Of a stretch of 64,000 nt of DNA, positions 5,977-58,653 are shown one piece after another. Under the pieces are notes generated by a model. It searched no databases, had not been told where the DNA came from, and worked only from the letters and a program-made list of their open reading frames with translations. The stretch comes from Candidatus Kerfeldbacteria bacterium RIFCSPLOWO2_02_FULL_42_19 (GTDB taxonomy: Bacteria > Patescibacteriota > Patescibacteriia > HO2-48-17): the NCBI GenBank assembly GCA_001818315.1, contig MHKF01000006.1, forward strand, positions 17,148-81,147. Reading direction: 5' to 3'. Positions within the stretch are counted from its first letter, which is position 1, and each line of letters starts with the position of its first letter. Made by a program: the position numbers and the translations under genes.

Positions 5977-7107
5977 TTGAAAATTTTAAAAATGTCCATG
6001 CCGAATATGGACATGCAAAATACAAATCAAAAAAATATTTGGTGGAAAAGCTGTCGCGATCAAGGGTTAGGACTCTGGGAATGCCCAAGTTTTCTTTTTA
6101 TCTTTGCTGGGATAGTCACGATAATCCTCATGCTTGTCGCATATTTCGTTGCCAGTTTCTATGCGAGTCCTGAAATCGCAATTGCAAGTATTGCTTCAGT
6201 GACGATATTCATGGTTATCATTTCATATATTGTTGATCGAGCGATGAACAAAGTCGCAAGAGCGAGAAAAGAACTCATGCAGTCAAATGCACTGCTACAA
6301 AAAGCACTGCATAAAGCACAAAAATCGGATACGCTGCGAGAGAATTTTGTGAGTATGATTGTACACGATCTTCGTGCGCCACTCGTAGGAATTCGTTTCC
6401 TTGCCGAATCATTACAAAATTCAAAACGTATTGTTTCACTCACAGAATGTCATCTCAGCGGCAAAGCGATCGAAGCAAGCACCCAAAAAATGTTACGATT
6501 CGTGCAGAATCTTTTACTCGTACAGAAAATTGAAGCCAAAGCATTTCCGATCATCAAAAAAAATGTGAATATTACGCCACTTCTTAGGTCGCAGATAGCG
6601 AGTCAGAAAGCATTTGCTCAAAAACGCAACGTTACATTAAAATTATTCATCCCAAAGAAATTACCAACGTGTTTTTGTGATCCGGAAAACACGGAAAGAA
6701 TCATTGAAAATCTTATCCATAACGCTGTGAAATATACAAAAGAAAAAAGCACAATCAGCATCGGTGTTTTTTTGCACACACCGGGAAAAAGTATGCGAGA
6801 AGAAGCAAAACAATTTCGAATACCCTGGCATGCACCAACACAAGATGAAAATTTCACACACGCTTCAGCGGCTCTGGGAATCGCTGTGACAGATGCAGGT
6901 CAAGGTGTGCCGCAGAAAGAGCAACAAAAAATATTTGATAAGTTTCACCAAATCATTGCACATCAAAAGAAGACTGAGGGCGTCGGACTCGGCCTTGCTA
7001 TTGCGAAAGGTATTACACAAGCCCAAGGCGGTATTATTGGTGTCACCTCGGTAAAAGGACGCGGCGCAACTTTTTATTGTACCATTCCTATAAAGTCAAA
7101 AGTATGA
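5977..7107 (+). CDS. Sensor histidine kinase (N-terminal TM, HisKA + HATPase_c)
   Basis: The H-box is VHDLRAPLVGIRFLAESL and the N-box is IENLIHNAVKYT. The G-boxes are DAGQGVP and EGVGLGLAIAKGITQAQGG. A TM helix follows the N-terminus. Confidence 0.8.
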   Translation: MKILKMSMPNMDMQNTNQKNIWWKSCRDQGLGLWECPSFLFIFAGIVTIILMLVAYFVASFYASPEIAIASIASVTIFMVIISYIVDRAMNKVARARKELMQSNALLQKALHKAQKSDTLRENFVSMIVHDLRAPLVGIRFLAESLQNSKRIVSLTECHLSGKAIEASTQKMLRFVQNLLLVQKIEAKAFPIIKKNVNITPLLRSQIASQKAFAQKRNVTLKLFIPKKLPTCFCDPENTERIIENLIHNAVKYTKEKSTISIGVFLHTPGKSMREEAKQFRIPWHAPTQDENFTHASAALGIAVTDAGQGVPQKEQQKIFDKFHQIIAHQKKTEGVGLGLAIAKGITQAQGGIIGVTSVKGRGATFYCTIPIKSKV

Positions 7108-7478
7108 CGGACATCAAGAAAAACATCTTCATCATAGAAGATGATGCAGCGTTGCGTCTCGCGCTCGTCAGTCATTTAAAAAGAAATTATAAGGTCAGTG
7201 AAGCGGAAGACGGAGAACAAGCTATAGATATGCTCAGCACACTCAGACCTGATCTTATACTGCTCGATATTAAGATGCCCAAAATAAATGGTATAGAAGT
7301 TTTGAAATACATGCGAAGGAAAACTATGCTTAAAAATACACCTGTGATTATTATTTCCCAATTTGATGCCCCAACGTTGATTGCCCAAGGGCTTCTGCTT
7401 GGAGCTAAAGATTACCTTGCAAAAGCAAATTATACATTGGAGGATATAGCAGAGATGATAAAAACACGCTTACGATGA
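7104..7478 (+). CDS. Single-domain response regulator (REC only)
   Basis: It carries IFIIEDDAALRLAL...PDLILLDIKMPKINGIEV...PVIIIS. The start ATG at 7104 overlaps the kinase stop (ATGA), which is preferred over the ORF-track start at 7077. Confidence 0.8.
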   Translation: MTDIKKNIFIIEDDAALRLALVSHLKRNYKVSEAEDGEQAIDMLSTLRPDLILLDIKMPKINGIEVLKYMRRKTMLKNTPVIIISQFDAPTLIAQGLLLGAKDYLAKANYTLEDIAEMIKTRLR

Positions 7479-7680
7479 ATTTCGGTGACCTCACATTCCC
7501 CATGAGGCTGTCGCCGAATGTTATTTCTTGTGCAATGCGCATAGAAAAAGAGGAAGAAGACTCTCGCTTTCGAAGCACTGACAGTGCACAGTGTGCTGAG
7601 AAAGGAGAGTATTTTTCCTCTTTTTCTATGATCAAAAGCATGTTTCACGGATGAAAGCGCATTCGGCGACAGCCCACTCA
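7479..7680. repeat. Structured intergenic element A: outer 15-bp inverted repeats (GGCTGTCGCCGAATG / CATTCGGCGACAGCC) enclosing a hairpin with a conserved 38-nt loop. It is homologous to the element at 23213-23341.
   Basis: The region 7546-7675 aligns with 23213-23341. The loop CTTTCGAAGCACTGACAGTGCACAGTG(T/G)GCTGAGAAAG is identical except for 1 nt. The stem arms differ in sequence but each pairs with its own partner. The 3' flank, ...ATGATCA.AA..GT.TTTCAC..GAAAG(C/T)GCATTCGGCGA, is also conserved. Confidence 0.6.
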
Positions 7681-7682
7681 CT

Positions 7683-8195
7683 TCAGACGCGATAGACTTT
7701 TAATCGCCCGCGTATTTCAATGGGTTCCCAATCTGGAAAACGAAATCCAAAAGAAATAACATACACACCTTTACGACACTCGCGTTGAATTTTTGATTGC
7801 AGCCGTTGCATGATATGCGGAATGCCATAGACAAACAGAGCGTCGGCATTTGAGAGATGTATGTTCCAAAAATTGCAACAGAGAATGGTACAGTATTGAC
7901 GAGTGCCGGAGAGTTGGATACGCAACCACGTAAGAGCACAGAGTACGGGATTGATTTCGTAGCCGAGAGCACGAATGTGTGATTTCGCCGCCGCAATGAG
8001 AATACTGCCGTCGCCAGAACCCAGATCAATCAAGGTTTGGCCGCTCGTAAGTCTCGCGAGACGTACGACAGTATCAATTTCTTTGCGCTGCATGGGAACA
8101 TATGGTGCACCGGTAAAGGCAGATATAATAAAAAAGATACCAAAAACGAGCAACACAAGAAGAATGAAAAGCAGTGCGAGAAGAAAAAGAATCAT
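7683..8195 (-). CDS. Class I SAM-dependent methyltransferase with an N-terminal TM anchor
   Basis: Motif I is LIDLGSGDGSILIAAA. The N-terminus (MILFLLALLFILLVLLVFGIFFII) is hydrophobic. Confidence 0.55.
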   Translation of the reverse strand: MILFLLALLFILLVLLVFGIFFIISAFTGAPYVPMQRKEIDTVVRLARLTSGQTLIDLGSGDGSILIAAAKSHIRALGYEINPVLCALTWLRIQLSGTRQYCTILCCNFWNIHLSNADALFVYGIPHIMQRLQSKIQRECRKGVYVISFGFRFPDWEPIEIRGRLKVYRV

Positions 8196-9279: not shown

Positions 9280-9353
9280 GTCCCCGTAGCTCAAATGGAA
9301 AGAGCAACTCCCTTCTAAGGAGTAGGTTGCATGTTCGATTCATGCCGGGGACG
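9280..9353 (+). tRNA. tRNA-Arg(TCT)
   Basis: A manual cloverleaf gives acceptor GTCCCCG/CGGGGAC, D arm GCTC-AAATGGAAA-GAGC, anticodon arm ACTCC-CTTCTAA-GGAGT (anticodon TCT), T arm GCATG-TTCGATT-CATGC, and discriminator G. CCA is not encoded. Confidence 0.7.
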
Positions 9354-9384
9354 CCGCAAAACATATGCTATACTTACTTTTGAT

Positions 9385-9456
9385 GGTGGCCATGGTGTAG
9401 TGGTAACACGCGGGGCTGTGGACCCCTCATCGAGGGTTCAATTCCCTCTGGTCACC
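9385..9456 (+). tRNA. tRNA-His(GTG) with an encoded G-1
   Basis: G-1 at 9385 pairs with discriminator C. The acceptor is GTGGCCA/TGGTCAC with one G-U. The D arm is GTGT...ACAC. The anticodon loop is CTGTGGA (GTG). The T arm is GAGGG-TTCAATT-CCCTC. The anticodon stem has one mismatch, so this should be confirmed with tRNAscan-SE. Confidence 0.55.
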
Positions 9457-9480
9457 CACACATACGTTTCCAAATCTCTC

Positions 9481-10938
9481 ATGAGTACACGATTGCAATC
9501 GAATATACTTTTCCAGGCATTGCCACAAGCGGTGCAAGAGGTATTGTTCAAGTTGAAAGGGGCCGGTTTTGAAGGTTTTATAGTAGGCGGTTGTTTACGC
9601 GATCTTATACTTGAGCGAGCTGTACGAGATTGGGATGTGACAACGAACGCAACACCAACCGAAATTCAAAAAATCTTCCCAAAAAGTTTTTACGCAAATG
9701 CTTTTGGGACCGTCACAGTACAAAGCGACGGAATGGAAATCGAAGTGACCACATACAGATCAGAAACAAAGTATTCAGACAAACGACATCCTGATGCAGT
9801 GCAGTTTGGCGTAACTCTTGAAGATGATTTGCAACGCCGAGATTTTACTATGAACGCCATTGCGAGCGATGGCGCAATATTGCACGATCCCTTTCAAGGC
9901 AGTAAAGATATTCAGAAACGTTTGATCCGCGCAGTTGGGAACCCAAAAGAAAGATTTGAAGAAGATGCCTTGCGGATGTTGCGCGCCATTCGATTTGCTG
10001 CTGAGTTACACATGCGCATCGAATCACATACATGGTCAGCAATCCTCTCCGATGTTCGGCTGATTGATTATCTGTCAAAAGAAAGAGTGCGAGATGAAAT
10101 AATGAAGATAGTTGCGAGTGATGATCCGTTGTGCGGTTTTTGGTTACTCATGACTTCCGGTGCATTGCAACGCATCATCCCTGAACTTCTCAAAGGCGAA
10201 AATGTCAGTCAAAATAAGCATCACATATATACTGTACTGTTTCATAATCTTTTTTCCATGGCCCATTGTCCTTCAGACGATCCTCTTGTGCGTTTAGCGG
10301 CACTGTTGCACGATGTGGGAAAGCCGCACACAAAACAAGGCGAAGGCACGGAGGCCACATTTTATCAGCATGAAATTGTTGGTGCGACGATGACAAGAAA
10401 AATCATGCGCAGACTAACTTTTTCAAACGCAGCTATAGAGCGAGTTTGCCATCTTGTGCGTCATCACATGTTTTATTACAACATTGGAGAAATCACAGAT
10501 GCAGGAGTGCGGAGATTTATTCGTCGCGTTGGAAAAGAAAACATCTCTGACCTCTTTGCGGTAAGGATTGGGGATCGCATGGGTTCAGGGGTCCAAAAAG
10601 ATAAACCTTTTAAACTCATCGAATTGGAAAAACGCATCGAAGAAGTACAAAAAGATCCCATTGATACGCGCATGCTTGCTCTTGATGGAAACGACGTCAT
10701 GCGTATTGCGAAGCTTGCGCCAGGAAGGACGATCGGCATACTACTGTATACGTTACTCGAAGAAGTTTTGGAAGATCCGACGAGGAATAACAGCGAGTAT
10801 CTGGAACAAAGAATACAAGCTTTGGCAGGAGAAGCGAAACAAGGGATATTGCCAATACCTCGTATTATGAAAGAGGATCAAAAACAGCGCGAAGAAAGAC
10901 TGACAGGAGGTCAAAAGTATAAACGAGTCACTGAATGA
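9481..10938 (+). CDS. cca: CCA-adding enzyme (class II tRNA nucleotidyltransferase with an HD domain)
   Basis: The head domain carries GGCLRDLILERAVRDWDVTT (the GGxxRD...DxD motif). The HD domain carries LAALLHDVGKP and a later HxxxxH. The ORF-track start at 9331 reads through the two tRNA genes. The start at MSTRLQ (9481) is preferred. Confidence 0.8.
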   Translation: MSTRLQSNILFQALPQAVQEVLFKLKGAGFEGFIVGGCLRDLILERAVRDWDVTTNATPTEIQKIFPKSFYANAFGTVTVQSDGMEIEVTTYRSETKYSDKRHPDAVQFGVTLEDDLQRRDFTMNAIASDGAILHDPFQGSKDIQKRLIRAVGNPKERFEEDALRMLRAIRFAAELHMRIESHTWSAILSDVRLIDYLSKERVRDEIMKIVASDDPLCGFWLLMTSGALQRIIPELLKGENVSQNKHHIYTVLFHNLFSMAHCPSDDPLVRLAALLHDVGKPHTKQGEGTEATFYQHEIVGATMTRKIMRRLTFSNAAIERVCHLVRHHMFYYNIGEITDAGVRRFIRRVGKENISDLFAVRIGDRMGSGVQKDKPFKLIELEKRIEEVQKDPIDTRMLALDGNDVMRIAKLAPGRTIGILLYTLLEEVLEDPTRNNSEYLEQRIQALAGEAKQGILPIPRIMKEDQKQREERLTGGQKYKRVTE

Positions 10939-10949
10939 TGTTTTGCCGG

Positions 10950-11035
10950 GTGAGGAAGAGGATGTATATTTTTTCAAATGCGTTGTGATAGGCAACTTTA
11001 CTGCATAAAAAGAAAAGTGTGCACTATAGTGCAAA
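10950..11035. repeat. Palindromic-element family copy 1: left arm plus core only, partial
   Basis: GAGGAAGAGGATGTATATTTTTTCAAATGCGTTGTGATAGGCAACTTTACTGCATAAAAAGAAAAGTGTGCACTATAGTGC is about 85% identical to the left half of copy 2 (12004-12085). No right arm was found. Confidence 0.5.
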
Positions 11036-11063
11036 AAGTCTAGAGCCTATCTCAAAAATAGCT

Positions 11064-11987
11064 CTAATGTTTACTATGATACCGCTTGTATACATCACGA
11101 AGGCGTTGATTGGTAATGTGCGTATATATTTGCGTCGTCGTAATGGAAGCGTGTCCAAGCATTGTTTGCACAGCACGAATATCAGCGCCGTTGAGAAGGA
11201 GGTCAGTAGCATAACTATGTCGAAGGGTGTGTGGAGTAATAGGTTTGGTAAGACCGGCAGCTCGAGCGTATTTTTGTATAAGTCTTTGTATGGAACGCGG
11301 CGTCAGCGGGACCGCGGTTCCTTGTCGTTTTTCAGCAAAGTCGTGACGCACAAAAAGATACGGAGACATATCTCTGCGGATGCGTATGTAGCGTCCAATC
11401 CACGCGCGAGCTATTTCAGATAAAAAAACTAATCGCAATTTTCCACCCTTGCCACGCACGGTAAATTCTTCTTTCGAAAGATTCACGTCATTCATCTTCA
11501 GACGAGAAAGTTCCGATACGCGTAACCCAGTAGAAAAGAAAACTTCTAAAATTGCTTTATCGCGCATTTTGAGAATCTCGCGCATTTTGAGTTTGAGCGG
11601 CGCATCAAGAAGTCGTGCGAGTTCGTTTCCTTCGAGAAAACTCACTTGACGATCGGGGAGCCTGCCGAGTTCGATTTTTTCTGATGCAAGTGTTGCGATA
11701 TCCTGTTTTGCAAGCCACTTAAGGAAACTCCGTAAAGCAATGAGGTGATAATTTTGGGTCGTAGTACGCAGAGGTTCAGAAGTTTTTGGATCGACAATGC
11801 GGTGGAGCCACAAACGGTATTTGTGCACCAGAGGAGCAGTAATATGATTGGGTTTTGAAATTCCTGCCCACCGTACAAATTTATGCAGCGAATAATCGTA
11901 GTTACGAATCGTCAGAGCGGAACGATTTTTTTCAACTTCAAGATATTCAAGAAATTGCGTAATGAGTTCTAAAAGTTGTGATTTCAT
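11064..11987 (-). CDS. Tyrosine site-specific recombinase, XerC/XerD-like
   Basis: The C-terminal catalytic region is HTLRHSYATDLLLNGADIRAVQTMLGHASITTTQIYTH, matching the R...HxxR...Y signature. The N-terminal SAM-like domain has the typical Xer N-terminus LLELITQFLEYLEVEKNRSALTIRNY. Confidence 0.8.
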   Translation of the reverse strand: MKSQLLELITQFLEYLEVEKNRSALTIRNYDYSLHKFVRWAGISKPNHITAPLVHKYRLWLHRIVDPKTSEPLRTTTQNYHLIALRSFLKWLAKQDIATLASEKIELGRLPDRQVSFLEGNELARLLDAPLKLKMREILKMRDKAILEVFFSTGLRVSELSRLKMNDVNLSKEEFTVRGKGGKLRLVFLSEIARAWIGRYIRIRRDMSPYLFVRHDFAEKRQGTAVPLTPRSIQRLIQKYARAAGLTKPITPHTLRHSYATDLLLNGADIRAVQTMLGHASITTTQIYTHITNQRLRDVYKRYHSKH

Positions 11988-12003
11988 ACTTGTACAAGAA
12001 TAT

Positions 12004-12159
12004 CGAGGAAGGAGGAGTATATATTTTCTTCAAATGTGTTGTGATAGGCAACTTTACTACATACAGAGGAAAGTGTGCACTGTAGTCACTCTTTCAAATA
12101 CAAATCGTCCATGTTTGGATATCACCGCATTTGAAAAAATATATGCTCCTCCTTCCTCG
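12004..12159. repeat. Palindromic-element family copy 2: 156 bp with 33-bp terminal inverted repeats
   Basis: IR-L CGAGGAAGGAGGAGTATATATTTTCTTCAAATG (12004-12036) matches the reverse complement of IR-R CATTTGAAAAAATATATGCTCCTCCTTCCTCG (12128-12159) at 31 of 33 positions. The core TGTTGTGATAGGCAACTTTACTACAT...GGATATCACCG is shared with copy 1. Confidence 0.6.
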
Positions 12160-12199
12160 TCTTCGATGGCAGAATAAAAAGATTTCGAAGACAGAGTAC

Positions 12200-13075: not shown

Positions 13076-13104
13076 AAGAGAGCGGAAACAATAATGTGGA
13101 GATA

Positions 13105-13262
13105 GATCATAAGGGGGAGCGATATATTTCTTTGAATGCGATGTGATAGGAAGGTATAACGTACACCGAGGAAATTGAGCACAGAAGAAATTTGCTGCAA
13201 TATAAGGGTTCATCTCTGGAGATCACCACATTCAAAAAATATATCGCTCCCCCTTATGATCT
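13105..13262. repeat. Palindromic-element family copy 3: 158 bp with 34-bp terminal inverted repeats
   Basis: IR-L GATCATAAGGGGGAGCGATATATTTCTTTGAATG (13105-13138) pairs with IR-R CATTCAAAAAATATATCGCTCCCCCTTATGATC (13230-13262). The inner arm TATAT.TTTYTTYRAATG and the TGTGATAGG...GATCACC core are shared with copy 2. The outer arm differs (GGGGGAGCGA versus GGAAGGAGGAG) but pairs with its own partner. Confidence 0.6.
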
Positions 13263-13304
13263 GATTTCAGAATTATTTAAAGCATCTGACTATATCATAC
13301 CAAA

Positions 13305-20731: not shown

Positions 20732-21059
20732 TGTGAATAAAATGTGGAAAAATAAAAAAATTATCCACAAAGTATATAATCACATTTCGTAATGTGTGGT
20801 ACAACAGAAAAAAATTTTCGCGTCAAATTCACAAAAAAAGAGCTAAGGAAAAATAAAAAATACAAAAGAACACCAAGAGAACAAGTGACAGATTGACCCG
20901 AATAGAAAAGTCTGCTATACTAAAAATATAAATTTCACATATTGCACTTTACCATTTTCTACACAACTTCCTTACCTCATACAAATAGGGATGGGCGTGG
21001 ACTGAAGCAGAATGCGCGCAAATGTTCCAATCTAGGTCCATCTCTATTACTGCCAAATG

Positions 21060-21300
21060 AAACAAAAACAAAACATTATACACCATCGCGTCTTTGACGC
21101 ATATGGCGGGGTAGAGAGAAGGTTAAGACACCTATATTTTGATAATATAGGGTCTGGAATGCACATTGTCCCTGGTAAGCGTTATCACCTCAATCTTCTT
21201 TAGCGGAGGAAAGAGGGAGCTGCCGGAGACGAAGGCGCATCCGGCCCATACAATTATTTTGGGACCAGGAGGGTCCCGGGGGCGCGTGATGCGCCTCTTC
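21060..21300. ncRNA. Candidate structured RNA: a GC-rich nested-hairpin region in an AT-rich intergenic stretch. The family is not identified.
   Basis: GCGTC-TTTGA-CGC, GCCGGA-GACGAAGGCGCA-TCCGGC, and GCGCATC...GGGACC-AGGA-GGGTCCC...GATGCGC form nested perfect stems. The region is upstream of the dksA-like gene. No RNase P, tmRNA or SRP signature motifs were recognised. Confidence 0.2.
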
Positions 21301-21319
21301 ATTTTGTGAAACCTTAAAA

Positions 21320-21754: not shown

Positions 21755-22207
21755 ATGCGACAGTTTTCAAAAAAATTGATATTTTTCAGTTCGAGTGTTT
21801 TTGTTATCGATAGAATTACAAAAATAATCGCCGTACAATTTGTAGGTAGAACGATGAATCTAGGATCGTTTGTACATTTGCAAACCAGCTATAACAGCGG
21901 CATCGCATGGGGCATTGCTGCGCCTTTCTGGCTCATGATACTCCTCACGCCTTTCATTTTTTTTCTGCTTATCATCTGGTGGAAGCAGGCGTATGCTCAA
22001 AATAAAAAATGGGAAAGTATAGCAAGTAGCGCGATTCTCGTAGGAGCGGTAAGTAATTTGATAGATCGCATTTTCTATAGCGGAGTGATTGATTTTATAG
22101 CCATTGGCTGGTGGCCTGTATTTAATATTGCTGATATATTGATCAGTGTTGGCGTACTCCTTGGCGGCGTACAAATATTGCGATATGAAACGCTTTCAAA
22201 GACGTAA
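21755..22207 (+). CDS. lspA: Lipoprotein signal peptidase (signal peptidase II)
   Basis: It has the conserved SYNSGIAWGI, NLIDR...GVIDFI and FNIADILISVGV boxes and four TM helices. Confidence 0.8.
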   Translation: MRQFSKKLIFFSSSVFVIDRITKIIAVQFVGRTMNLGSFVHLQTSYNSGIAWGIAAPFWLMILLTPFIFFLLIIWWKQAYAQNKKWESIASSAILVGAVSNLIDRIFYSGVIDFIAIGWWPVFNIADILISVGVLLGGVQILRYETLSKT

Positions 22208-22487
22208 AGAAGATTTTGTTTGCGAATATTGTCATACGGTTGTGATCGGTGATGGATATACGAATCACTGTCCACAGTGTCTCGTCTCAAAACATGTAGA
22301 TATATTTCCAGGAGACAGAGCAGCGAACTGCGGTGGACGTATGAACGTCGCAGCGATTGATTTCCAAGACGGGGAATATATCCTCATTCATGAATGCGTA
22401 CGCTGCAGGCATCGTAAAAATAATAAAGTATCTCCACGTGATTCATTTCACACACTCTTTGCACTCATACAGGAACGGAATTCCTGA
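22185..22487 (+). CDS. RNHCP-domain cysteine-rich protein
   Basis: CEYCHTVVIGDGYTNHCPQCLVSKH...CVRCRHRK carries the (R/T)NHCP motif plus paired CxxC motifs. The start (MKRFQRRKEDF) overlaps the 3' end of lspA by about 23 nt. Confidence 0.5.
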   Translation: MKRFQRRKEDFVCEYCHTVVIGDGYTNHCPQCLVSKHVDIFPGDRAANCGGRMNVAAIDFQDGEYILIHECVRCRHRKNNKVSPRDSFHTLFALIQERNS

Positions 22488-22538
22488 GGTCAGAGAGACA
22501 AGACTCACCGACGTTACGAGAAGCACTAAAATGAAAGT

Positions 22539-23213
22539 ATGAGTTTATATATTGTGCCGACACCCATTGGAAATCTTGCAGACATCACGCTGCGTGCATT
22601 GGAAATACTCAAAAGTGCTGATCTGATTGTTTGCGAAGATACACGACACACAAGCATTTTACTCAAGCACTATAATATTCAGAAACCAACAGAAAGTTAT
22701 CATCAACATTCAAGCGCAGCAAAAGAAAAATTACTCCTCGAAAAACTGAAAGCAGGGCATCATCTTGCTCTGGTGAGTGATGCAGGAACCCCGGGAGTAA
22801 GCGATCCAGGACAAAAACTCGTCCAAAAGGCAATCGAAGTCGGCATCGAAGTTATTCCATTACCAGGGCCATCTGCTTTGATTACAGCAGTTTCTGGAGC
22901 AGGAATCCCTCTCTCTCGTTTTGTGTTTCTCGGTTTTATACCACACAAGAAAGGAAGAAATAAGCTTTTCGAATACATTGCCGCTTCGGAATTGCCTTGT
23001 GTGGTATATGAATCGCCGCACCGGATTCAAAAAACTTTACAACAATTTGTAGGTATCCTTACAAAGGATCGGAAGATGATAGTCGCGAAAGATATCAGTA
23101 AACGTTATGAGCGTTTTATACGCGGTACTGCGGACAGTATTTTGAAGGAAATCAACGCGATGGAAAAAGTTGTGGGCGAGTTTGTCATCATTATAGATCG
23201 TAAAAGTAAATAA
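22539..23213 (+). CDS. rsmI: 16S rRNA (cytidine1402-2'-O)-methyltransferase RsmI
   Basis: The N-terminus is LYIVPTPIGNLADITLRALEILKSADLIVCEDTRHT, a canonical RsmI tetrapyrrole-methylase fold. Confidence 0.85.
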   Translation: MSLYIVPTPIGNLADITLRALEILKSADLIVCEDTRHTSILLKHYNIQKPTESYHQHSSAAKEKLLLEKLKAGHHLALVSDAGTPGVSDPGQKLVQKAIEVGIEVIPLPGPSALITAVSGAGIPLSRFVFLGFIPHKKGRNKLFEYIAASELPCVVYESPHRIQKTLQQFVGILTKDRKMIVAKDISKRYERFIRGTADSILKEINAMEKVVGEFVIIIDRKSK

Positions 23214-23341
23214 AAAGGAGGAGATTATAGCTTTCGAAGCACTGACAGTGCACAGTGGGCTGAGAAAGCTATAATCTCCTCCTTTTCTTCTATGATCACA
23301 ATGTATTTTTCACAAGCGAAAGTGCATTCGGCGATAACCCC
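23213..23341. repeat. Structured element B: A-tract, perfect 19-bp stem (AAAAGGAGGAGATTATAGC / GCTATAATCTCCTCCTTTT) with a 36-nt conserved loop, then T-tract. The 3' flank encodes the last 15 codons of comM.
   Basis: It lies between the convergent rsmI and comM genes, like a bidirectional intrinsic terminator but with an unusually large loop. The loop and 3' flank are homologous to element A (7546-7675). Confidence 0.6.
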
Positions 23342-24876
23342 ATTCTTTTTTCCGCGACTTCACGAACACGATACTGCAAAGCTTCCTGCAGATGTTGTGC
23401 ATGTACTTCTGATTTTTGTTCAATATCAGCAATCGTTCGCGCCACTTTCATGATACGAACGATACTGCGAGGAGAAAGTGAATAATGCGTCATGGCTTTT
23501 TGCAGAATATTTTGGCATTGATTGTTTAAAGATAAAAAATTGCGCAGATTTTTACTTGGAATTTCGCTGTTTGTAAAACAACCAATCGAGGACAAACGAT
23601 TTTGTTGAATTATGCGGGCAGTAGCAACCTGTTCACGCAAGGTTGGAGTGAAAGTATTTTTTTGGGTTGAATGAAAAAATTCCGTGGGTGTCAGACGAGG
23701 GATTTCAATATGCATATCGATACGGTCAAGAAAAGGACCAGAAAGTTTTTTTTCATACCGTGTAATTTCTTGAGGTGAACAAGTGCAATCCACTTGTGTA
23801 TCAAAACGAAAGCCACAAGGACACGGATTCTGTGCAGCTATCAGCATCATGCATGCAGGAAAAACAAGGGAATTACGGATTCGGCTGAGGCGTATGCTAT
23901 ATGATTCGAGCGGCTCGCGTAGTGATTCCAAAACTGATCGACGGAATTCCGGAAGTTCATCCAAAAAGAGTACGCCTCGGTGCGCAAGAGAAATTTCTCC
24001 TGGTTTCGGAGACGCACCGCCTCCAACAATGCTCGCATACGAAGCAGTATGATGTGGAGCACGAAAGGGTCGCGTCGTAATAATGGGTTGTGATTCTGTC
24101 AAAAGTCCTGCAATACTATATAATTCAGTGACTTCAACGATTTCCTTTTCGGACATCGGTGGCAGAATTGCCGGGACGCTTTGCGCAAGAAGTGTTTTTC
24201 CGGCGCCAGGAGGGCCGGTGAGGAGAATGTTATGTCCTCCAGCAGCAGCAAGCGTAAGCGCTCGTTTTGCAAAAACGTGACCGCGAATATCATCAAAATT
24301 CGTTTGAGGTGTGACCTGTTTTAGGGTGTTTGTAGAAGTTGTAGGCGAGGAAAAGCTGGATAGTGTGTAGTTTCCAGTAAGAAAATCAAGCACTTGTTTG
24401 AGATGTCGAATCGGATAGAGAGTCAAACCGCTGATAAGCGCTGATTCATGAGCGTCTTTCTCAGGAAGAATCAAGTGAGTGATACGAGAGCGTTTTGCGA
24501 TATTTGCCAATACAATAGCTCCTTGAATAGAACGAATCGTGCCATCAAGTGCAAGCTCTCCAAGAAAAAGATAATTTTTAGGTATCTGTATTTCAGGATG
24601 ATGCACAGCAAAGATACCAACAGCAATAGCAAGATCGTATAACGCTCCTTCTTTTTTGATAGAGGCCGGTGCGAGATTCACAGTAATACGCATGGGCGCA
24701 AAACGACAACCCACATTTTTTAAAGCTGCTCTCACGCGCTCTTTAGCTTCTTGTACTGCAGTATCCGGTAGTCCAACAATTGTACAACTGGGTAACCCGG
24801 CGGAAAGATCGACCTCCACTTCTATCAGTGTGCCAGCAAGTCCGATGCGAGCCACTGAATAAACTGTTTTCATCAT
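23296..24876 (-). CDS. comM: YifB/ComM-family Mg-chelatase-like AAA+ ATPase
   Basis: It has a Lon-like N-terminal domain. The AAA+ Walker A is NILLTGPPGAGKTLLAQ, and the arginine-finger region is ...VLFLDELPEF... A ChlI-type C-terminal domain follows. Confidence 0.85.
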   Translation of the reverse strand: MMKTVYSVARIGLAGTLIEVEVDLSAGLPSCTIVGLPDTAVQEAKERVRAALKNVGCRFAPMRITVNLAPASIKKEGALYDLAIAVGIFAVHHPEIQIPKNYLFLGELALDGTIRSIQGAIVLANIAKRSRITHLILPEKDAHESALISGLTLYPIRHLKQVLDFLTGNYTLSSFSSPTTSTNTLKQVTPQTNFDDIRGHVFAKRALTLAAAGGHNILLTGPPGAGKTLLAQSVPAILPPMSEKEIVEVTELYSIAGLLTESQPIITTRPFRAPHHTASYASIVGGGASPKPGEISLAHRGVLFLDELPEFRRSVLESLREPLESYSIRLSRIRNSLVFPACMMLIAAQNPCPCGFRFDTQVDCTCSPQEITRYEKKLSGPFLDRIDMHIEIPRLTPTEFFHSTQKNTFTPTLREQVATARIIQQNRLSSIGCFTNSEIPSKNLRNFLSLNNQCQNILQKAMTHYSLSPRSIVRIMKVARTIADIEQKSEVHAQHLQEALQYRVREVAEKRMGLSPNALSLVKNTL

Positions 24877-25001
24877 ATAAAAAAACGCCCCGCTCTTGAG
24901 GACGCTTACTCGATAATGTTATTGTAGTGCAAAGTAAAAAAAGATGCAAGTCTATTTTCGCTATGGTAACATAGTGAGTACATATCGAATCACCGAAAAA
25001 T

Positions 25002-26666
25002 ATGATGTCCATACGACGCAAAGAAAAACTCATTCACACTTTACGATGGATCGTGAAAGGCCGATGGGCGATCATCGTAGGGATTCTTGCTGTTGGTCTG
25101 GCGCAGCGTTCTATTAATGTTGTTTCAATCCATTTACCAAGTAGTGTCATGATCACCCTCGCATTGACAGCGATTACATATAACTTGACATACTATTTCC
25201 TGCTGCGCCGAGGGATGCGTCTAAACGCATGGACCCTTCGCATCCTTGCCATCGCGCAAGTCTTCGTAGATCAACTCCTCTTTACCTACATTATTTACAT
25301 TAGCGGAAGTTCGGAAAGTCTTTCGTTTATATTTTACTTTTTCCCCATCCTCATAGCGACCGTACTCTTCCGCAATATAGGTATTTTACTCTTTGCATTC
25401 GTGAATAGTCTTCTCTACATTTTTCTCATTGTGATAGAAATGAACACAATATTGCCTTTTGTTGCACGCTATGATTTTGTATCCGGCATTCACGGTAATA
25501 TCCCAGTGATGATTTCAAATACATTGACGATCGTTGCAGTCATTATGCTCGCTGCATTTTTTTCGACGTACATTTCCAATATGATTCGGGACAGAGAACG
25601 TGAAATTCTTACGGAGCAAGATAAAGTGAATTCTATTTTAAACAGTCTGCCAGACGGTGTGATTATGATTGATGTAACTGGAAAAGTGATTGCGTTGAAT
25701 CCTCAAGGCGCAGAAATGCTTCAAGTAAAAGCCTCCGCTATCATCGATAATATCCTCGTGAAAGAAAATTTTATTCCGGAACTTCAAGAACTTGGCGCTC
25801 ATATTATTCAGCAAGGTTCTCACACACATATTGAGAGTAAAGAAATAGAAGTGGAAGAGCGCGGGATGAGACACGTGTATAAAATTACGACAATCCCTGT
25901 ATTTAACGCTCTCGGCAAGATTATGGGATCGATGAAGGTCATCACGGATTATACACGAGAGCGCGAACTCGACAGAATGAAATCAGATTTTATTTCTATA
26001 GCAGCTCACCAACTGCGCACGCCGCTTTCTGGTGTGAAATGGCTCTTAAAGATGATTATTGACGGCGATATGGGTCCATTGAATGAAGAACAGAGAAAAT
26101 TTCTGACACGAGGATATCAAAATCAGGAACGAATGATATCACTCATTAATGATTTGCTTGATGTGTCACGTATCGAAGAGGGGAGATTTAAATTAAATAC
26201 GGAACTTCAGCAGATTGAAAAAAGTATTATTGAGAGCATACGTGCTATTGAAACTCTGGCACAGAAAAAAAATATACAAGTTCGTTTTATAAAACCAGAG
26301 AAGCTGTTGCCACCTGTACTATTTGATAAGGAGAAAATTGAACTTGTGCTCCAAAACCTTCTCGATAACGCCATAAAATATACAAAAAAGAATGGCCACG
26401 TATTAGTGAATATTCTACAGGAAGGGAACATGGTGACAGTAAGTATCCAAGATAATGGAGTAGGTATTCCACAAGATCAACAGAAGAAACTCTTTTCAAA
26501 ATTTTTCCGAGCGCGTAATGTTATGCAAATGCATACAGATGGGTCGGGACTTGGATTATTTATTGTGAAAAATGTTCTCACGACTCATGGAGGGGACGTA
26601 GGAATCGAGAGCGAAGAAGGGAAGGGTACAAAAGTATGGTTTTCTTTGCCCATTCACAGAGTTTAA
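25002..26666 (+). CDS. Sensor histidine kinase (multi-TM, PAS, HisKA, HATPase_c), paralog of 13305-15026
   Basis: The H-box is ISIAAHQLRTPLSGVKWLL, the N-box is LLDNAIKYTKKNGH, the G1-box is DNGVGIP, and the G2-box is GSGLGLFIVKNVLTTHGGDV. The domain order matches the 13305-15026 HK, and the HisKA region is about 60% identical to it. Confidence 0.8.
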   Translation: MMSIRRKEKLIHTLRWIVKGRWAIIVGILAVGLAQRSINVVSIHLPSSVMITLALTAITYNLTYYFLLRRGMRLNAWTLRILAIAQVFVDQLLFTYIIYISGSSESLSFIFYFFPILIATVLFRNIGILLFAFVNSLLYIFLIVIEMNTILPFVARYDFVSGIHGNIPVMISNTLTIVAVIMLAAFFSTYISNMIRDREREILTEQDKVNSILNSLPDGVIMIDVTGKVIALNPQGAEMLQVKASAIIDNILVKENFIPELQELGAHIIQQGSHTHIESKEIEVEERGMRHVYKITTIPVFNALGKIMGSMKVITDYTRERELDRMKSDFISIAAHQLRTPLSGVKWLLKMIIDGDMGPLNEEQRKFLTRGYQNQERMISLINDLLDVSRIEEGRFKLNTELQQIEKSIIESIRAIETLAQKKNIQVRFIKPEKLLPPVLFDKEKIELVLQNLLDNAIKYTKKNGHVLVNILQEGNMVTVSIQDNGVGIPQDQQKKLFSKFFRARNVMQMHTDGSGLGLFIVKNVLTTHGGDVGIESEEGKGTKVWFSLPIHRV

Positions 26667-51789: not shown

Positions 51790-52473
51790 ATGCATTCACA
51801 AAAGTTGGCACAAGGTCGCATCACAAAATCGGTGCAAAAATATATCGACATTTATGAAATTAAGGATGATGTCGTGGTATTGAAAGATGGTTCCATGCGA
51901 GGCGTACTGCTTGTTTCGAGTATCAATTTTGCTTTGAAATCAGAAGAAGAACAAAGCGCCATTATCCAATCTTACGTCCAATTCCTCAACTCCCTTAATT
52001 TTCCTTTGCAGATCGTTATACAATCCCGCAGGCTTAATATCGAAGCCTATCTCGAACGCCTCAAAAACATCGAAAGAGAACAAACAAACGAACTCCTGCG
52101 AATCCAAACAGCCGATTACCGAAAATTCGTCGGAGAACTCGTAGAAATTGCCGATATCATGAGTAAACATTTTTACGTAGCTATACCGTATTCCCCGTAT
52201 CATAAAGGAGAAAAAAAAGGTTTTTTTTCAAGATTCGGTGAAGTGTTTTCGCCAGCGACCGTAATTACGCTCCAGAGACAAAAATTTGAAAAATACAAAC
52301 AAGAGCTCGAAAGAAGAGTATCACTCGTAAGCGATGGATTGGCTTCTATGGGACTGACATCCGTCATGTTGGATACGCAAAGTCTTATTGAGTTGTATTA
52401 CAATACCTATAATCCCACTATGTACGAGCATCAGCGTTTAACGGATCTCAACGCGATCCAAGTAGTTGAATAA
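51790..52473 (+). CDS. VirB4/TrbE/CagE N-terminal domain as a separate 227-aa ORF (split VirB4)
   Basis: IDIYEIKDDVVVLKDGSMRGVLLVSSINFALKSEEEQSAIIQSYVQFLNSLNFPLQIVIQSRRL matches the CagE_TrbE_VirB N-terminal domain pattern. It stops with TAA 2 nt before the ATG of the ATPase ORF, in a different frame. Confidence 0.55.
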   Translation: MHSQKLAQGRITKSVQKYIDIYEIKDDVVVLKDGSMRGVLLVSSINFALKSEEEQSAIIQSYVQFLNSLNFPLQIVIQSRRLNIEAYLERLKNIEREQTNELLRIQTADYRKFVGELVEIADIMSKHFYVAIPYSPYHKGEKKGFFSRFGEVFSPATVITLQRQKFEKYKQELERRVSLVSDGLASMGLTSVMLDTQSLIELYYNTYNPTMYEHQRLTDLNAIQVVE

Positions 52474-52475
52474 AT

Positions 52476-54311
52476 ATGCCACAAGAGATTGTAAAAACAG
52501 TACAAACCACAATCGATAAAAAACAGGAAAAGCAAATTCTCGAAGCCGAACGCGTATTCCGGCGAGGAGAAATATCCGTGCGCGATCTCATTGCACCAGC
52601 AGCAATGAAAGTGAGTCCACGTGCTCTGGATATCGGTGGGAAACTCGCAAGCACACTCTTTGTGATCACGTATCCCCGATACATCGGCGTCGGCTGGTTT
52701 ACGCCCATCGTGATCTTGAATCTTCCTATCGACATCGCGATGTTTTTTTACCCTGTTGCTTCCGATATCGTACTCAAGCAGCTGCGCAATAAAGCAGGTG
52801 CCATCGAAGCTCAACTCCTTTCGGATGCAGAAAAAGGAGCGCCTCGTGATCCCATTCGCGAAACAGCGTTAAAGGACATCGAACAACTCCGCGATAATCT
52901 TGTGCAAGGTACCGAGCGATTTTTTCAATTTGCGCTCTATGTGACCGTATACGCTGATAACGAAAAGCAACTCGAAGAACGTGTTGAAAAAATAGAAAAT
53001 ATCTTCGGATCACGACTCGTGTATGTGAAGCGGGTGCTCTATCAAGCAGAACAAGGATTCAATTCAACAATGCCACTCGGCAATGACGAAATTGCCGTAT
53101 ATTTCAACATGAATTCTTCGCCATGCGCATCGTCATTTCCTTTTACTTCAGCTGAACTCACGAGCGATGAAGGGGTGCTCTTTGGAATCAATCGGCACAA
53201 CAATAGCCTCGTGCTTTTTGATCGTTTTTCACTGCAGAATGGCAATGCAGTCGTTTTTGCAACAGCAGGTGCTGGAAAAAGTTATGCGGTGAAACTTGAA
53301 GTTTTGCGAAGTTTGATGTATGGCACCGACATTATTATCATCGACCCAGAACGCGAATATAAATACCTCTCTGATTCTGTTGGCGGGACATTCATCAACA
53401 TTTCGTTGAATTCAGAAGCGAAAATTAATCCTTTCGATCTCCCGCGTCCAGTGGGCGGTGCCGATAGACCAGCGGACATTATTCGATCCTCCGTCATTAC
53501 ATTGAAAGGTTTGATTCGGATCATGGTAGGTAATTTGACGCCAGAAGAAGATTCGCTCGTTGATCGCGCACTCATTGAAACCTACGCGAAAAAAGATATT
53601 ACTGTTGAAAGCGACTTACATTCCATTGACGTACCGACAATGTTGGATTTCCAAGAAATACTTTCGGGTATGGAAGGGGGCGAAGGTTTGCTTTTGAAAA
53701 TAAAAAAGTACACTGAGGGAACGTTTGCCGGACTTTTTTCGAGTCAGACGAATATCGACATGAAAAATCAACTCGTTGTGTTTAGCGTGCGCGATCTTGA
53801 AGATGAGCTTCGGCCGATTGCGATCTATACGATTATGACCTATATTTGGAGTGTCGTACGTTCGCAACTCAAAAAACGAATTCTTGTGATCGATGAAGCG
53901 TGGTGGCTTATGCAGCACGAAGATTCCGCGAAATTTATTTACGCGTTGGTGAAACGATGTCGGAAATATTATCTGGGCGTCACGACGATTACACAGGATG
54001 TGAATGATTTTTTGCGTTCACCTTACGGTCAAGCGATTGTGACGAATTCAGCATTGCAACTCCTCTTAAAACAATCACCGGCATCAATTGATATTGTCGC
54101 AAAAACATTTTTGCTGACACAGGGTGAAAGGTATTTGTTGCTTGAAAGTGGGGTCGGTGAAGGTATTTTTTTCGCAGGCAGCAAACATGCGGCTATTAAA
54201 GTTGTTGCGTCGTATGCAGAAGATCAGATCATTACCTCAGACCCACGGCAGTTGCTCGAAATCGAAAAAGCGAAAAAAGAATTCGAAGAATCTATAGGAA
54301 ATAAACAGTAA
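52476..54311 (+). CDS. VirB4/TrbE-family T4SS ATPase (C-terminal ATPase portion)
   Basis: Walker A is VVFATAGAGKSYAV. Walker B is RILVIDEAWWLM. The downstream TTITQDVNDF motif region and the typical post-Walker A IIIDPEREY are present. Confidence 0.8.
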   Translation: MPQEIVKTVQTTIDKKQEKQILEAERVFRRGEISVRDLIAPAAMKVSPRALDIGGKLASTLFVITYPRYIGVGWFTPIVILNLPIDIAMFFYPVASDIVLKQLRNKAGAIEAQLLSDAEKGAPRDPIRETALKDIEQLRDNLVQGTERFFQFALYVTVYADNEKQLEERVEKIENIFGSRLVYVKRVLYQAEQGFNSTMPLGNDEIAVYFNMNSSPCASSFPFTSAELTSDEGVLFGINRHNNSLVLFDRFSLQNGNAVVFATAGAGKSYAVKLEVLRSLMYGTDIIIIDPEREYKYLSDSVGGTFINISLNSEAKINPFDLPRPVGGADRPADIIRSSVITLKGLIRIMVGNLTPEEDSLVDRALIETYAKKDITVESDLHSIDVPTMLDFQEILSGMEGGEGLLLKIKKYTEGTFAGLFSSQTNIDMKNQLVVFSVRDLEDELRPIAIYTIMTYIWSVVRSQLKKRILVIDEAWWLMQHEDSAKFIYALVKRCRKYYLGVTTITQDVNDFLRSPYGQAIVTNSALQLLLKQSPASIDIVAKTFLLTQGERYLLLESGVGEGIFFAGSKHAAIKVVASYAEDQIITSDPRQLLEIEKAKKEFEESIGNKQ

Positions 54312-54322
54312 TGAATTAAGGT

Positions 54323-54928
54323 ATGAATAAAAAATTTTTCATAATACTCATCGTTTTCGTGACTCTTCTGATTATCGGCGGAGGTATTCTCGTCTGGTTC
54401 TTATTGAAGTATCAAGAACTAAACTATGTAACGAATCAGCCGCAGAATGTAAATTCGAGGGCAGTAAATATTCCGGTAACAACAACAAATACGCAAACAG
54501 CGAATGCAAATGTAATTGAGCAAAATACGAATCAAGAGAAGAGTAACCTTGAGCAAAACACAGAAGACGAAATTACGGCGCTCAGTAGAAGTTTTATAGA
54601 ACGTTTCGGCACGTTCTCGAATCAGAATGAATACGAAAATATTAACAACCTTCGTATTTACATGACCAAGAAAATGCAAGCATATGCAGATACGCTTATC
54701 AAGAATGCAAAGGCAACAGATGAAAGCAGTCCTTATTATGGAATTACAACAAAAGTCGTAAGCGTTGAAATCAACGAACTTGCTCCCCCACAAGCGCAGG
54801 TAAAAATTACAACCCAGCGTAAGGAAACGAAAGAAAATAGCGAAACGAAAGTATTTTATCAAGATGTTGAGATGGGTGTTGTGCAGGAGAGAGAAGTTTG
54901 GAAGATTGATAGTGTCACATGGAAGTAA
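54323..54928 (+). CDS. Bitopic membrane protein with a C-terminal NTF2-like domain (VirB8/TcpC-like candidate)
   Basis: It has an N-terminal TM helix (FFIILIVFVTLLIIGGGILVWFLL) and an N/T/Q-rich linker. The C-terminal ~110 aa ends ...VFYQDVEMGVVQEREVWKIDSVTWK, a pattern typical of NTF2-like/VirB8 folds. Confidence 0.4.
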   Translation: MNKKFFIILIVFVTLLIIGGGILVWFLLKYQELNYVTNQPQNVNSRAVNIPVTTTNTQTANANVIEQNTNQEKSNLEQNTEDEITALSRSFIERFGTFSNQNEYENINNLRIYMTKKMQAYADTLIKNAKATDESSPYYGITTKVVSVEINELAPPQAQVKITTQRKETKENSETKVFYQDVEMGVVQEREVWKIDSVTWK

Positions 54929-54945
54929 GAGTATAGATAATTATT

Positions 54946-55680
54946 ATGTCAGCAGAAGCAGCTGAAAATCTTCAAAGTATGCCTGTGTTGCCAGCAGCTT
55001 ATCAGGCGCAGGCAGCGAGGCAACTTTCGCGGGAAAAACAAGGTAGACGTCTTTCCGCTGTACCAGCGCCATTAGGTTTGGATTATGGGGGGGCTGGAAT
55101 GCCTTCTGCGGAAAGTGATGCTGCGGAAGCGTCGAACGAAGCAAGTTCCGCAACATCGGCAGAAGGTGCACTAGATCAAAAACCAGTTATCCAAGGAGCG
55201 CAACTACAGCAGGCACTGAGGCGTTCATTGGGACAACGAACAAAACTTGCGCGCGAGGGTTCGGAAGGCGCAGAAGAAGAAAGTAAAAAAGGGGCGGTTT
55301 CAGATGCCACGGCTACCGGTGTGCGACTTTTGACTGATAACGCATTGACATGGTGCTTCCGATACTGCGCAACGTTTGAACCTTTTGGAATTGTTTTGGT
55401 TGTACTGCCGTATCTGAATTTTCATTTTTGCCAAGCGCACTTGCGTGGATCCCAATGGTTTCGAAAATTCAAGTTGTGGGAAATCGTTGTGTTTATACTT
55501 CTAGATCTTCTCGTTATTGGTATTATCGCAAGCATTTTTATGCTCGTGATACTCGTCGTTGAGTCAGCACAAAAAAAAGCAGAAATCACGTGGCGTCTTA
55601 TTATGGGTTTAGTCACCGGCGGTATATCAGGTCTTAGTGGGGCAGCAGGATCTATTCTCGGAGAAGAATTGACTCAATAA
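54946..55680 (+). CDS. Hypothetical membrane protein (acidic/Ser/Ala-rich N-terminus with a C-terminal multi-TM region)
   Basis: The C-terminal hydrophobic helices are FGIVLVVLPYLNFHF, WEIVVFILLDLLVIGIIASIFMLVILVV and LIMGLVTGGISGLSGAAGSIL. No family was recognised. Confidence 0.4.
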   Translation: MSAEAAENLQSMPVLPAAYQAQAARQLSREKQGRRLSAVPAPLGLDYGGAGMPSAESDAAEASNEASSATSAEGALDQKPVIQGAQLQQALRRSLGQRTKLAREGSEGAEEESKKGAVSDATATGVRLLTDNALTWCFRYCATFEPFGIVLVVLPYLNFHFCQAHLRGSQWFRKFKLWEIVVFILLDLLVIGIIASIFMLVILVVESAQKKAEITWRLIMGLVTGGISGLSGAAGSILGEELTQ

Positions 55681-55688
55681 TTAAATTT

Positions 55689-56930
55689 ATGCTCGGCGTT
55701 AAAATAGAAATATTCAAAAAAATCGGATTCGTTTTTATCTTCTTGTTGGTTGCAATAGGTATGGGGTTTGTTATTTATCGTATCTTTTTTGGCCCACTTG
55801 TTCGTGAACCTGCAACGAATGTGAATATTTCGCTTCCTCCCGGAACACTACCGCCGACAAACGTCAATATTAACGCAGGAGTGATTATTCGTAATATTAA
55901 CGGAGTGCAAGAAGTCGTACTCCCTGCAATCGATACGGTCGCACGTGGAGGAAATACACTTGCTGAAGATGTACCTGCTGAGGCCGTGAGTAATGCGGAA
56001 GTAACCGAACGCGGAATCGTATATTATAACGAATTCGAAGGAAAATTTTACACACTAGATAAAGATGGCAAACCGCAAACGCTCACAGACGATGTGTATC
56101 GATCGGCAGAAGAAATCACGTGGAGCCCTGAAGGTTCTAAAGCAATTTTAGAATTTCCGGATGGCAGCAATATTCTGTATGATTTTGATAGTAAAAAACA
56201 AACAACACTCCCAAAGGAGTTAAGCGATTTTTCTTTTGCTCCAAGCGGCGGCGAGATTGCATTTAAATTTCTCACCGATCGCAAAGAGCACCGATGGCTT
56301 GGTGTATCTTCTCCCGACGGTTCGCAAGCGCGCGGCATTGAACAACTTGGAGAAAATGCAGAGAAGGTGACAGTTGATTGGTCACCGTCTGGACAGGTGA
56401 TTGCGACGTTTCGGGAAAGCGTCAATGCGGAGGATAACGAAATTACGTTCGTGGGTCTTAATGACGAGAATTTTAAGGGCCTTGTTGTGCAAGGAAGAGG
56501 ATTTCAATCGCAATGGTCACCTGCAGGAGATAGATTATTATACAGTGTCTATAATGCCCAAGGGAATTATCAGCCAGAGTTGTGGATTACCGATGCGCAA
56601 GGAGAGAATATCGGTCGAAACAATGTTCCACTGAAGATCAATACCTGGGCGGACAAATGTACTTTTTCGGTAAATACCGCAATCTATTGCGCAGTGCCAC
56701 AGACGTTACCGTACGGAGCAGGGATTGTGCCGGACCTTGCTGCGAGCACGCCAGATATTTTTTATAAAATTGATCTTGCAACCGGTACAAAAACTGTTAT
56801 CGCATACCCCGTGGATAGTAGCGGAAATTCACGATTCTCTGCCGAGAAGCTCTATGTAGGCAACGATGGCAAAAACCTCTTTTTTACGGATAAGCAAACT
56901 AGAAAACTCCAGAAAATTAGATTAGAATGA
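55689..56930 (+). CDS. TolB-like beta-propeller protein (PD40/WD40-like repeats) with an N-terminal TM anchor
   Basis: It has an N-terminal TM helix. Repeated W-S-P-x-G blades are present (ITWSPEGSKAILEFPDGSNILYDFD, FAPSGGEIAFKF, VDWSPSGQVIATF, SQWSPAGDRLLYSV), as in TolB C-terminal propellers. Confidence 0.5.
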   Translation: MLGVKIEIFKKIGFVFIFLLVAIGMGFVIYRIFFGPLVREPATNVNISLPPGTLPPTNVNINAGVIIRNINGVQEVVLPAIDTVARGGNTLAEDVPAEAVSNAEVTERGIVYYNEFEGKFYTLDKDGKPQTLTDDVYRSAEEITWSPEGSKAILEFPDGSNILYDFDSKKQTTLPKELSDFSFAPSGGEIAFKFLTDRKEHRWLGVSSPDGSQARGIEQLGENAEKVTVDWSPSGQVIATFRESVNAEDNEITFVGLNDENFKGLVVQGRGFQSQWSPAGDRLLYSVYNAQGNYQPELWITDAQGENIGRNNVPLKINTWADKCTFSVNTAIYCAVPQTLPYGAGIVPDLAASTPDIFYKIDLATGTKTVIAYPVDSSGNSRFSAEKLYVGNDGKNLFFTDKQTRKLQKIRLE

Positions 56931-57665: not shown

Positions 57666-57669
57666 GTCT

Positions 57670-58563: not shown

Positions 58564-58653
58564 TTATTTTGGTGTGTTTTGATTTCGGATGGCAATCATA
58601 ATGATACCGGAGAGAAATTCTTGAATAGAGAAGTTTGTTTTTAAATCAGTACA

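Follow-up and report, generated by a model that had tools for sequence, protein, structure and literature searches.

Elements A (7504–7675) and B (23213–23341) of the window (the whole 64,000-nt stretch of DNA analysed here) are very probably two old copies of a lineage-specific, non-coding and fully palindromic transposable repeat of about 162–172 nt that resembles a MITE, judging by comparisons with further copies in this genome and in that of a relative.

Two related elements between convergent genes

An earlier note on this DNA had proposed that 7546–7675 is homologous to 23213–23341 and that the two share a conserved loop of 38 nt, and our comparisons bear out both proposals. The two regions are 78% identical over 136 columns (blastn, E 9e-24; nhmmer, E 5e-19), with MAFFT aligning them likewise, and the loop proves to be a 39-nt apex in which 38/39 positions are identical between A (7566–7604) and B (23230–23268). 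When the window was searched with the loop pattern, exactly these two copies were returned, compared with none in 100 shuffles. Identity elsewhere is 18/34 in the two stem arms and 43/56 in the 3' flank, so that the apex is significantly more conserved than either the arms (Fisher p 8e-6) or the flank (p 0.006).

Element A, 172 nt in length, is a complete old copy lying between two convergent genes: a response regulator gene on the plus strand (7077–7478; Pfam Response_reg) that stops 25 nt before it, and a putative methyltransferase gene on the minus strand (7683–8195; a weak DOT1 match just under the Pfam cut-off) whose stop lies 7 nt past it. The whole of 7504–7675 forms one imperfect palindrome, with a self-reverse-complement identity of 72.5%; folded as RNA it reaches −89.8 kcal/mol (z = −11). 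Its outer inverted repeats are real and longer than had been claimed: 7506–7527 pairs with 7653–7674 at 86% over 22 nt, 15 nt of which form a perfect core. The left terminal inverted repeat (GAGGCTGTCGCCGAATGT; 7504–7521, plus strand) was found as one of an inverted-repeat pair and is matched by a profile of the family's ends (described below) at 7504–7550 (E 5e-9); it is of the type that we call End-2, and its subterminal part is nearer to End-2 than to End-1 of element X, which is described in the next section. The right terminal inverted repeat with its subterminal region (7631–7675, minus strand) is of the End-1 type, is matched by the same profile at 7675–7625 (E 1e-12) and aligns with B and with copies C and X. 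Between the two ends stands a central hairpin (7540–7630), predicted by folding, with arms at 7540–7565 and 7605–7630 (26 pairs, 1 mismatch, 1 G-T; 92% complementary). The apex that it carries is itself partly paired, CTTTC with GAAAG and AGCAC with GTGCT around a 14-nt loop.

Element B, on the other hand, is a truncated copy that consists of the hairpin and End-1 and is without the End-2 arm. The sole match of the end profile at B is 23341–23289 (E 3.5e-12), and a second end was not detected by it. The hairpin (23213–23286) has 23 consecutive pairs, 23213–23235 with 23264–23286, holds the conserved apex and folds at −59.2 kcal/mol (z −8). As with A, the element fills the gap between convergent genes, here an rsmI-like methyltransferase gene on the plus strand (22539–23213; Pfam TP_methylase), whose stop (23211–23213) lies at the hairpin base, and comM on the minus strand. 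The last codons of rsmI were considered as the missing End-2, with a likeness of about 10/16 by eye; this likeness is undetected by the end profile and is attributed to chance.

The same ends decide what the flank of A is. The earlier note had read it as an orphan copy of the last codons of comM, and had offered two origins for it, donation of the present comM end by an element or a segmental duplication that placed a second comM 3' end, terminator included, at 7546–7675. A duplication would account for A and B being direct repeats of the same polarity, and for a flank that is in frame in comM and open in the same frame at A. At the same time, ComM homologues are without the tail, the motif occurs twice and inverted within A itself, the multi-copy elements of another genome, at sites unrelated to the comM 3' end, have it at each end, and there is a third copy elsewhere in this genome, all of which makes duplication very unlikely. 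Donation by an element is the origin that stands, considering that the repeat is multi-copy elsewhere and that orthologues are without the tail, and the flank of A is the terminal inverted repeat and subterminal region of a palindromic non-coding element and no orphan of comM. Similarly, the 83-aa frame at 7430–7681 is open, as had been noticed, but is not a translated remnant of ComM: the peptide GLSPN(A/T)LS is spelled by the terminal repeat in one frame and is present at both ends of the relative's copies, and a search of 1.84 billion representative proteins returned no relatives of the 83-aa product, just two low-complexity matches.

Several other identities for the flank were tried and set aside. 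GLSPNxLS as the N-terminal motif of a tyrosine recombinase pseudogene was rejected, the local XerC/D-like protein reading EKNRSALTIRNY and the repeat at both ends explaining the peptide. A parS-like or dif-like site was likewise rejected, only A having a partial TGTTTCAC half-site, seen by eye. Two public 'hypothetical proteins', of 59 aa (window 7475–7654, plus strand) and 92 aa (contig L007, 20776–21054), are ORFs across A and across the decayed copy C; clustered at 90%, they fall in groups of one and two sequences.

A and B could also be taken for attL and attR of a 15.7-kb element integrated in the comM 3' end, perhaps by way of the tyrosine recombinase at 11064–11987. They are direct repeats of about 130 nt placed 15,665 nt apart, one of them at a gene 3' end and with a Phage_integrase-family gene in between, and in other bacteria comM is known as a hotspot of integration. 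We consider this extremely unlikely: the repeats are just 78% identical, A, X and Y each have these ends as an inverted pair 125–130 nt apart, and the 15.7 kb between A and B hold PNPase, gmk, two tRNAs, cca, lspA, RsmI, a DksA-like gene and the XerC/D-like recombinase itself, in the gene order of the relative's contig L021. Because this interval is housekeeping and syntenic with L021, A and B do not bound an island. Within the interval, the longest ORF of the CCA-adding enzyme (9331–10938) overlaps tRNA-Arg(TCT) and tRNA-His(GTG) (9280–9457), its true start being further downstream (485 aa at NCBI). Elsewhere in the window, at about 52300–58600, a T4SS/conjugation-like cluster (TraC-like, TraG P-loop, T4SS pilin, DsbA-like) lies beside radA-like and recG genes.

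Hairpins can also induce chimeras and mis-joins during assembly of a MAG, and Logan and MEGAHIT contigs do end within these repeats (L006 at window 23228, L010 at window 7535, and both L017 and L021 at their position 1, in element Y). Both junctions of the window are nevertheless spanned identically by independent contigs of 28–95 kb from different samples and assemblers, two NCBI MAGs among them, and an assembly artefact is scarcely credible as the source of A and B. The contigs that we read, among about 20 from ENA, NCBI and Logan with the flanking genes, had 0 differences at B and at most 1–3 differences at A in about 14.7 kb.

Further copies and empty sites

Two elements of the same family are found in a distant Kerfeldbacteria relative (contigs L015/L017) whose ComM is 49% identical and whose G+C content is 49.5%, and in which the 23-nt flank motif occurs three times in a 6.6-kb piece. 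Element X (L017, 6083–6244; 162 nt) occupies the spacer that separates the stop of a histidine kinase gene from the start of a response regulator gene. Element Y, also of 162 nt and in the opposite orientation to X, lies between a 414-aa gene and a DnaA-box-rich region, and was assembled from the L017 and L021 contigs, whose overlap of 122 nt falls within the element. Between X and Y there is a difference at 1 position in 162; both have perfect terminal inverted repeats of 18 nt (GGGTCTGTCGCCGAATAC), and have subterminal regions that can be told apart, which defines End-1 and End-2. Y has a perfect 5-bp direct repeat, ATAGT, at its two borders, and X has GTGAT and ATGAT (4/5), or TGA/TGA if the element is one base longer; border repeats are seen at these two elements only, with no target-site duplications seen at A, B or C. 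X folds as a single rod hairpin (−94.2 kcal/mol, z −14.6). Next to Y, and upstream of a dksA-like gene, three TGTGGATAA/TTATCCACA DnaA-box-like 9-mers mark L017 150–260 as a probable replication origin; the corresponding gap of the window is 20732–21319, 590 nt.

The elements of the relative can be aligned with those of this genome. X aligns with A end to end (X 2–161 against 7675–7505; nhmmer, E 0.001), and also matches a third copy, C (nhmmer, E 3e-9), which is decayed and lies 6.2 kb before the window start (L007, 20837–20910); the 23-nt motif of C, GAAAGCGTATTCGGCGACAGACC, is identical at 23/23 positions to the ends of X and Y. What X and Y share with A and B is the ends and not the apex. 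A profile built from six ends was run over 190 kb, and its only matches were four ends in this genome and another four in the relative. About 85 kb of this genome were read, with at least 3 copies, and about 28 kb of the relative, with at least 2 copies. The anatomy of the family is that of an element of 162–172 nt with perfect terminal inverted repeats of about 18 nt (about 39 nt if imperfect), a variable core and a rod-like hairpin over the whole length.

Sites at which the element is present in one genome are empty in the other. The gap between histidine kinase and response regulator genes in the window, orthologous to the X site, is 33 nt and holds no element. In turn, comM and rsmI of the relative are convergent with a 44-nt overlap and no hairpin, comM ending in ...QYRAR, and in a second relative the next gene begins 1 nt past comM. 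At the level of sequence, these comparisons establish that A and B are members of one family, with the repeat anatomy given above, with several copies in each of two genomes and with reciprocal empty sites. We infer the insertion events of A and B themselves from this membership, because neither has target duplications and B has one end only.

These features agree with what is expected of MITEs: the elements are short and non-coding (162–172 nt, compared with a limit of about 600 bp), terminal inverted repeats are found in X, Y and A, and the copies are dispersed with presence or absence at orthologous sites, as seen between distant relatives only. A non-coding, multi-copy element that is present in two lineages, with terminal inverted repeats and, at X and Y, probable short border duplications, fits a MITE mobilised in trans, and the young, near-identical copies with border repeats in the relative are what one would expect if a transposase acting in trans had inserted them by a cut or copy mechanism. 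The copies in the window are old, being 78% alike and without target duplications, with A complete and B having lost End-2. The two lineages that carry the element co-occur in the same sample series.

Searches further afield were negative. No element copies were found in relatives L018, L019, L020, L022 and L024, which were sampled through histidine-kinase homologues, a sampling that did yield the L021 part of Y, and there were no transposase genes at the loci read and no autonomous partner with these ends. Neither a 19-mer of the apex nor an 18-mer of the repeat had an exact match in a viral collection, while exact searches with the apex 19-mer gave only a chance match to Leptolyngbya among GTDB genomes and a low-complexity contig among JGI metagenomes; BLAST of X against plasmids gave chance matches only.

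The C-terminal tail of ComM

The gene affected by element B is comM (yifB; 23296–24876, minus strand), which was recognised by Pfam (PF01078, PF13541, PF13335) and homologue search and encodes a Mg-chelatase-like AAA ATPase of 526 aa, identical to the ComM of a Candidatus Kerfeldbacteria MAG from the Rifle aquifer. That the flank at B encodes the C-terminus of ComM, as the earlier note had it, is correct. The product ends in ...RMGLSPNALSLVKNTL, the codons for which fall inside the repeat; from the ORF list and translation, the element's terminal repeat supplies the stop, the final 14 codons (GLSPNALSLVKNTL) and a single base of the preceding Met codon (23296–23341).

Comparison with other ComM proteins sets this tail apart. 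The Pfam Mg_chelatase_C domain ends at residue 503/526, and a QYR motif is found in 116 of the best 120 homologues. In 115 of those 116 the protein ends 1–10 residues (mode 5) past QYR, whereas here it runs on for 23 residues, the lone outlier; the native part after QYR, VREVAEKR, is of ordinary length. The earlier note had named orthologues with neither the tail nor the hairpin as a sign that an element had been inserted, and this is what the alignment gives, with the tail absent from the orthologues and no hairpin after comM in the two relatives. Since 115 homologues are without the long tail and the two relatives lack room for a hairpin, we conclude from these alignments that the present tail of comM is of foreign origin, donated by the mobile element.

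Two routes to this tail can be proposed. Either B inserted at the comM end, or a later deletion, that of End-2, reached the comM end; in both cases the native stop would have been removed, and for this reason the comM frame now runs 14 codons into the terminal repeat and ends at its first in-frame TGA. Both A and B may have persisted at convergent 3' ends because insertion would be least harmful there and a hairpin would be able to end both transcripts.

In an 84%-identical relative, contig SRR22388088_1079130 breaks off about 50 codons before the comM 3' end. The comM/rsmI pair is inverted as a block with respect to the RNHCP and histidine kinase genes (window 22146–25002 compared with L017 1657–4319), and in L024 (200–5426) a ClpB-like gene lies between comM and rsmI.

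Maintenance of the hairpin and likeness to known repeats

Although the stems of A and B have diverged in sequence, they have largely kept their pairing: of 17 pairs compared, 8 are identical, 7 are changed on both sides, 1 is changed on one side and 1 is broken. The apex is carried by two sequences only, and the covariation therefore amounts to one comparison. Both stems are 23–26 bp long and, whichever strand is read, rise from an A-rich 5' base and return to a U-rich 3' base, which suggests that the copies surviving at convergent gene ends would act as bidirectional intrinsic terminators or as stabilisers of RNA 3' ends. They resemble such terminators in lying between convergent stops and in offering each of the two transcripts a long G+C-containing stem with a U-run; they differ in having a structured 39-nt apex in place of a 3–8-nt loop and in being a dispersed repeat with transposon ends, the terminator function being a prediction. 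A consensus terminator scan called neither hairpin, because the apex exceeds its 8-nt loop limit, so with a stem and a U-rich 3' base present the hairpins may still work like terminators.

Stem pairing and a constant apex would be kept either by such use as terminator or stabiliser or by a structural need of transposition. A nearly invariant apex is odd for a neutrally decaying MITE, and may be due to host selection (for a terminator or a binding site), to a transposition structure inherited from different masters, or to arm-to-arm correction combined with local gene conversion.

The same features could be those of a host-encoded, non-mobile structured RNA, such as a 3'-UTR element, a small RNA or a protein-binding hairpin, with A and B as paralogous RNA genes. 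This would be in keeping with the strong folds on both strands, the 7 compensatory pairs and the significantly more conserved apex, and a second palindromic family shares the 10-mer ACAGTGCACA with the apex, within a small GAAAG/CTTTC hairpin. On the other hand, transposition is indicated by the terminal inverted repeats, the 5-bp direct repeat and the nearly identical copies that lie in unrelated contexts and in either orientation, the relative's copies are without the apex and have only the ends in common, and covariation in a palindrome can come from arm-to-arm template switching and is here a single comparison. No Rfam match was above noise: over the window only tRNAs passed the gathering thresholds and no family was found at permissive thresholds either, the best match around A reaching 28 bits compared with a threshold of 55.8 and being a generic long-hairpin match. 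We regard a non-mobile RNA as unlikely, and as a reading that overlaps with the best explanation, being compatible with later exaptation of a MITE.

The second palindromic family comprises two complete copies and one half copy (10948–11030, 11998–12165 and 13098–13268), in the spacers of a cluster of cca, xerC-like, response regulator and histidine kinase genes, and the complete copies fold at −69 and −68 kcal/mol (z about −9 to −10). The mini-hairpin inside this repeat, GAAAG..GTGCACTGTAG..CTTTC, contains the reverse complement of the 10-mer that it has in common with the A/B apex. This family was not found in the relatives' loci. A third palindrome (L007, 20972–21140), about 6.3 kb left of the window start and 60 nt from C, has arms of about 48 nt with TAGAGCCTAT; this 10-mer is also found as a small hairpin at window 11040–11068, beside the half copy of the second family.

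Returning to the MITE-like repeat, it is conceivable, though we hold it only tentatively and think it rather doubtful, that the A/B subfamily has become a domesticated structured module, a site whose sequence is recognised by a host factor (be it a nuclease, a DNA-binding protein or a factor in termination or processing) and which repeats have spread. Such a site is suggested by an apex kept at 38/39 despite compensatory turnover of the stem, by the position between convergent genes and by the similar GAAAG...ACAGTGCACA...CTTTC mini-hairpin in an unrelated palindromic family. If true, a reduced CPR genome would have a signal for regulation or termination that travels on a repeat.

Among known repeats, the closest likeness is to bacterial MITEs and Correia elements (CREE), which are equally non-coding, 100–260 nt long, bounded by terminal inverted repeats, folded as a hairpin over the whole length and present in several copies near gene ends. 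Correia elements of Neisseria act on neighbouring transcripts as terminator or processing hairpins and alter gene termini. The elements described here have no sequence similarity to these, their border repeats are of 5 bp (ATAGT) or possibly 3 bp and not TA, their host is a small-genome lineage of the Patescibacteria (CPR), no cognate transposase was seen at the loci read, and the A/B subfamily has a very long perfect stem and a 39-nt apex that hardly varies. Rickettsia palindromic elements (RPE) are palindromic repeats that are joined to coding sequence and translated as an extra peptide with the gene left intact. They are typically in frame inside genes, whereas the element here replaces the stop region and adds a C-terminal tail of 14 residues only, with no sequence relationship between the two.

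In TIMEs the terminal repeats, of about 38 nt, are better conserved than the core, and target duplications are AT-rich and 5–6 bp long (PMC4133298). Our elements are alike in their imperfect repeats of about 39 nt and in a core that varies between subfamilies, and perhaps in a 5-bp AT-rich duplication, which is perfect at Y and 4/5 at X, but are 162 nt long compared with 262 nt and have several copies where TIMEs are mostly single-copy, and no Tn3-family transposase was seen in the loci read. The outer GGGTCTG.CGC of the element agrees at 10/11 bases with what we take to be the Tn3 repeat, as present in the pBR322/pUC backbone, a string that is printed verbatim in 25 papers. The similarity over the full 38 nt was matched by 232/2000 shuffles and is not significant, and a Tn3 origin of the ends is no more than conceivable.

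With no sequence relationship to Correia, ERIC or RPE-type repeats and yet a similar behaviour, the element would make a new family within a kind already known, its sequence unrelated to known palindromic repeats. A full-text search of the literature for MITEs together with the Candidate Phyla Radiation returned nothing related and one unrelated mention. The finding accounts for an oddity of annotation, in that among 116 motif-bearing homologues only the ComM of this Kerfeldbacteria species has a long tail, and these repeats are predictable places at which short-read assemblies break. As a case of a repeat reshaping a gene end it is a neat and rather ordinary example, and a concrete one of how the C-terminus of a gene product and a terminator shared by convergent genes may both come from a repeat. 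Moreover, it suggests that even the very small genomes of CPR/Patescibacteria carry active or recently active miniature transposable repeats.
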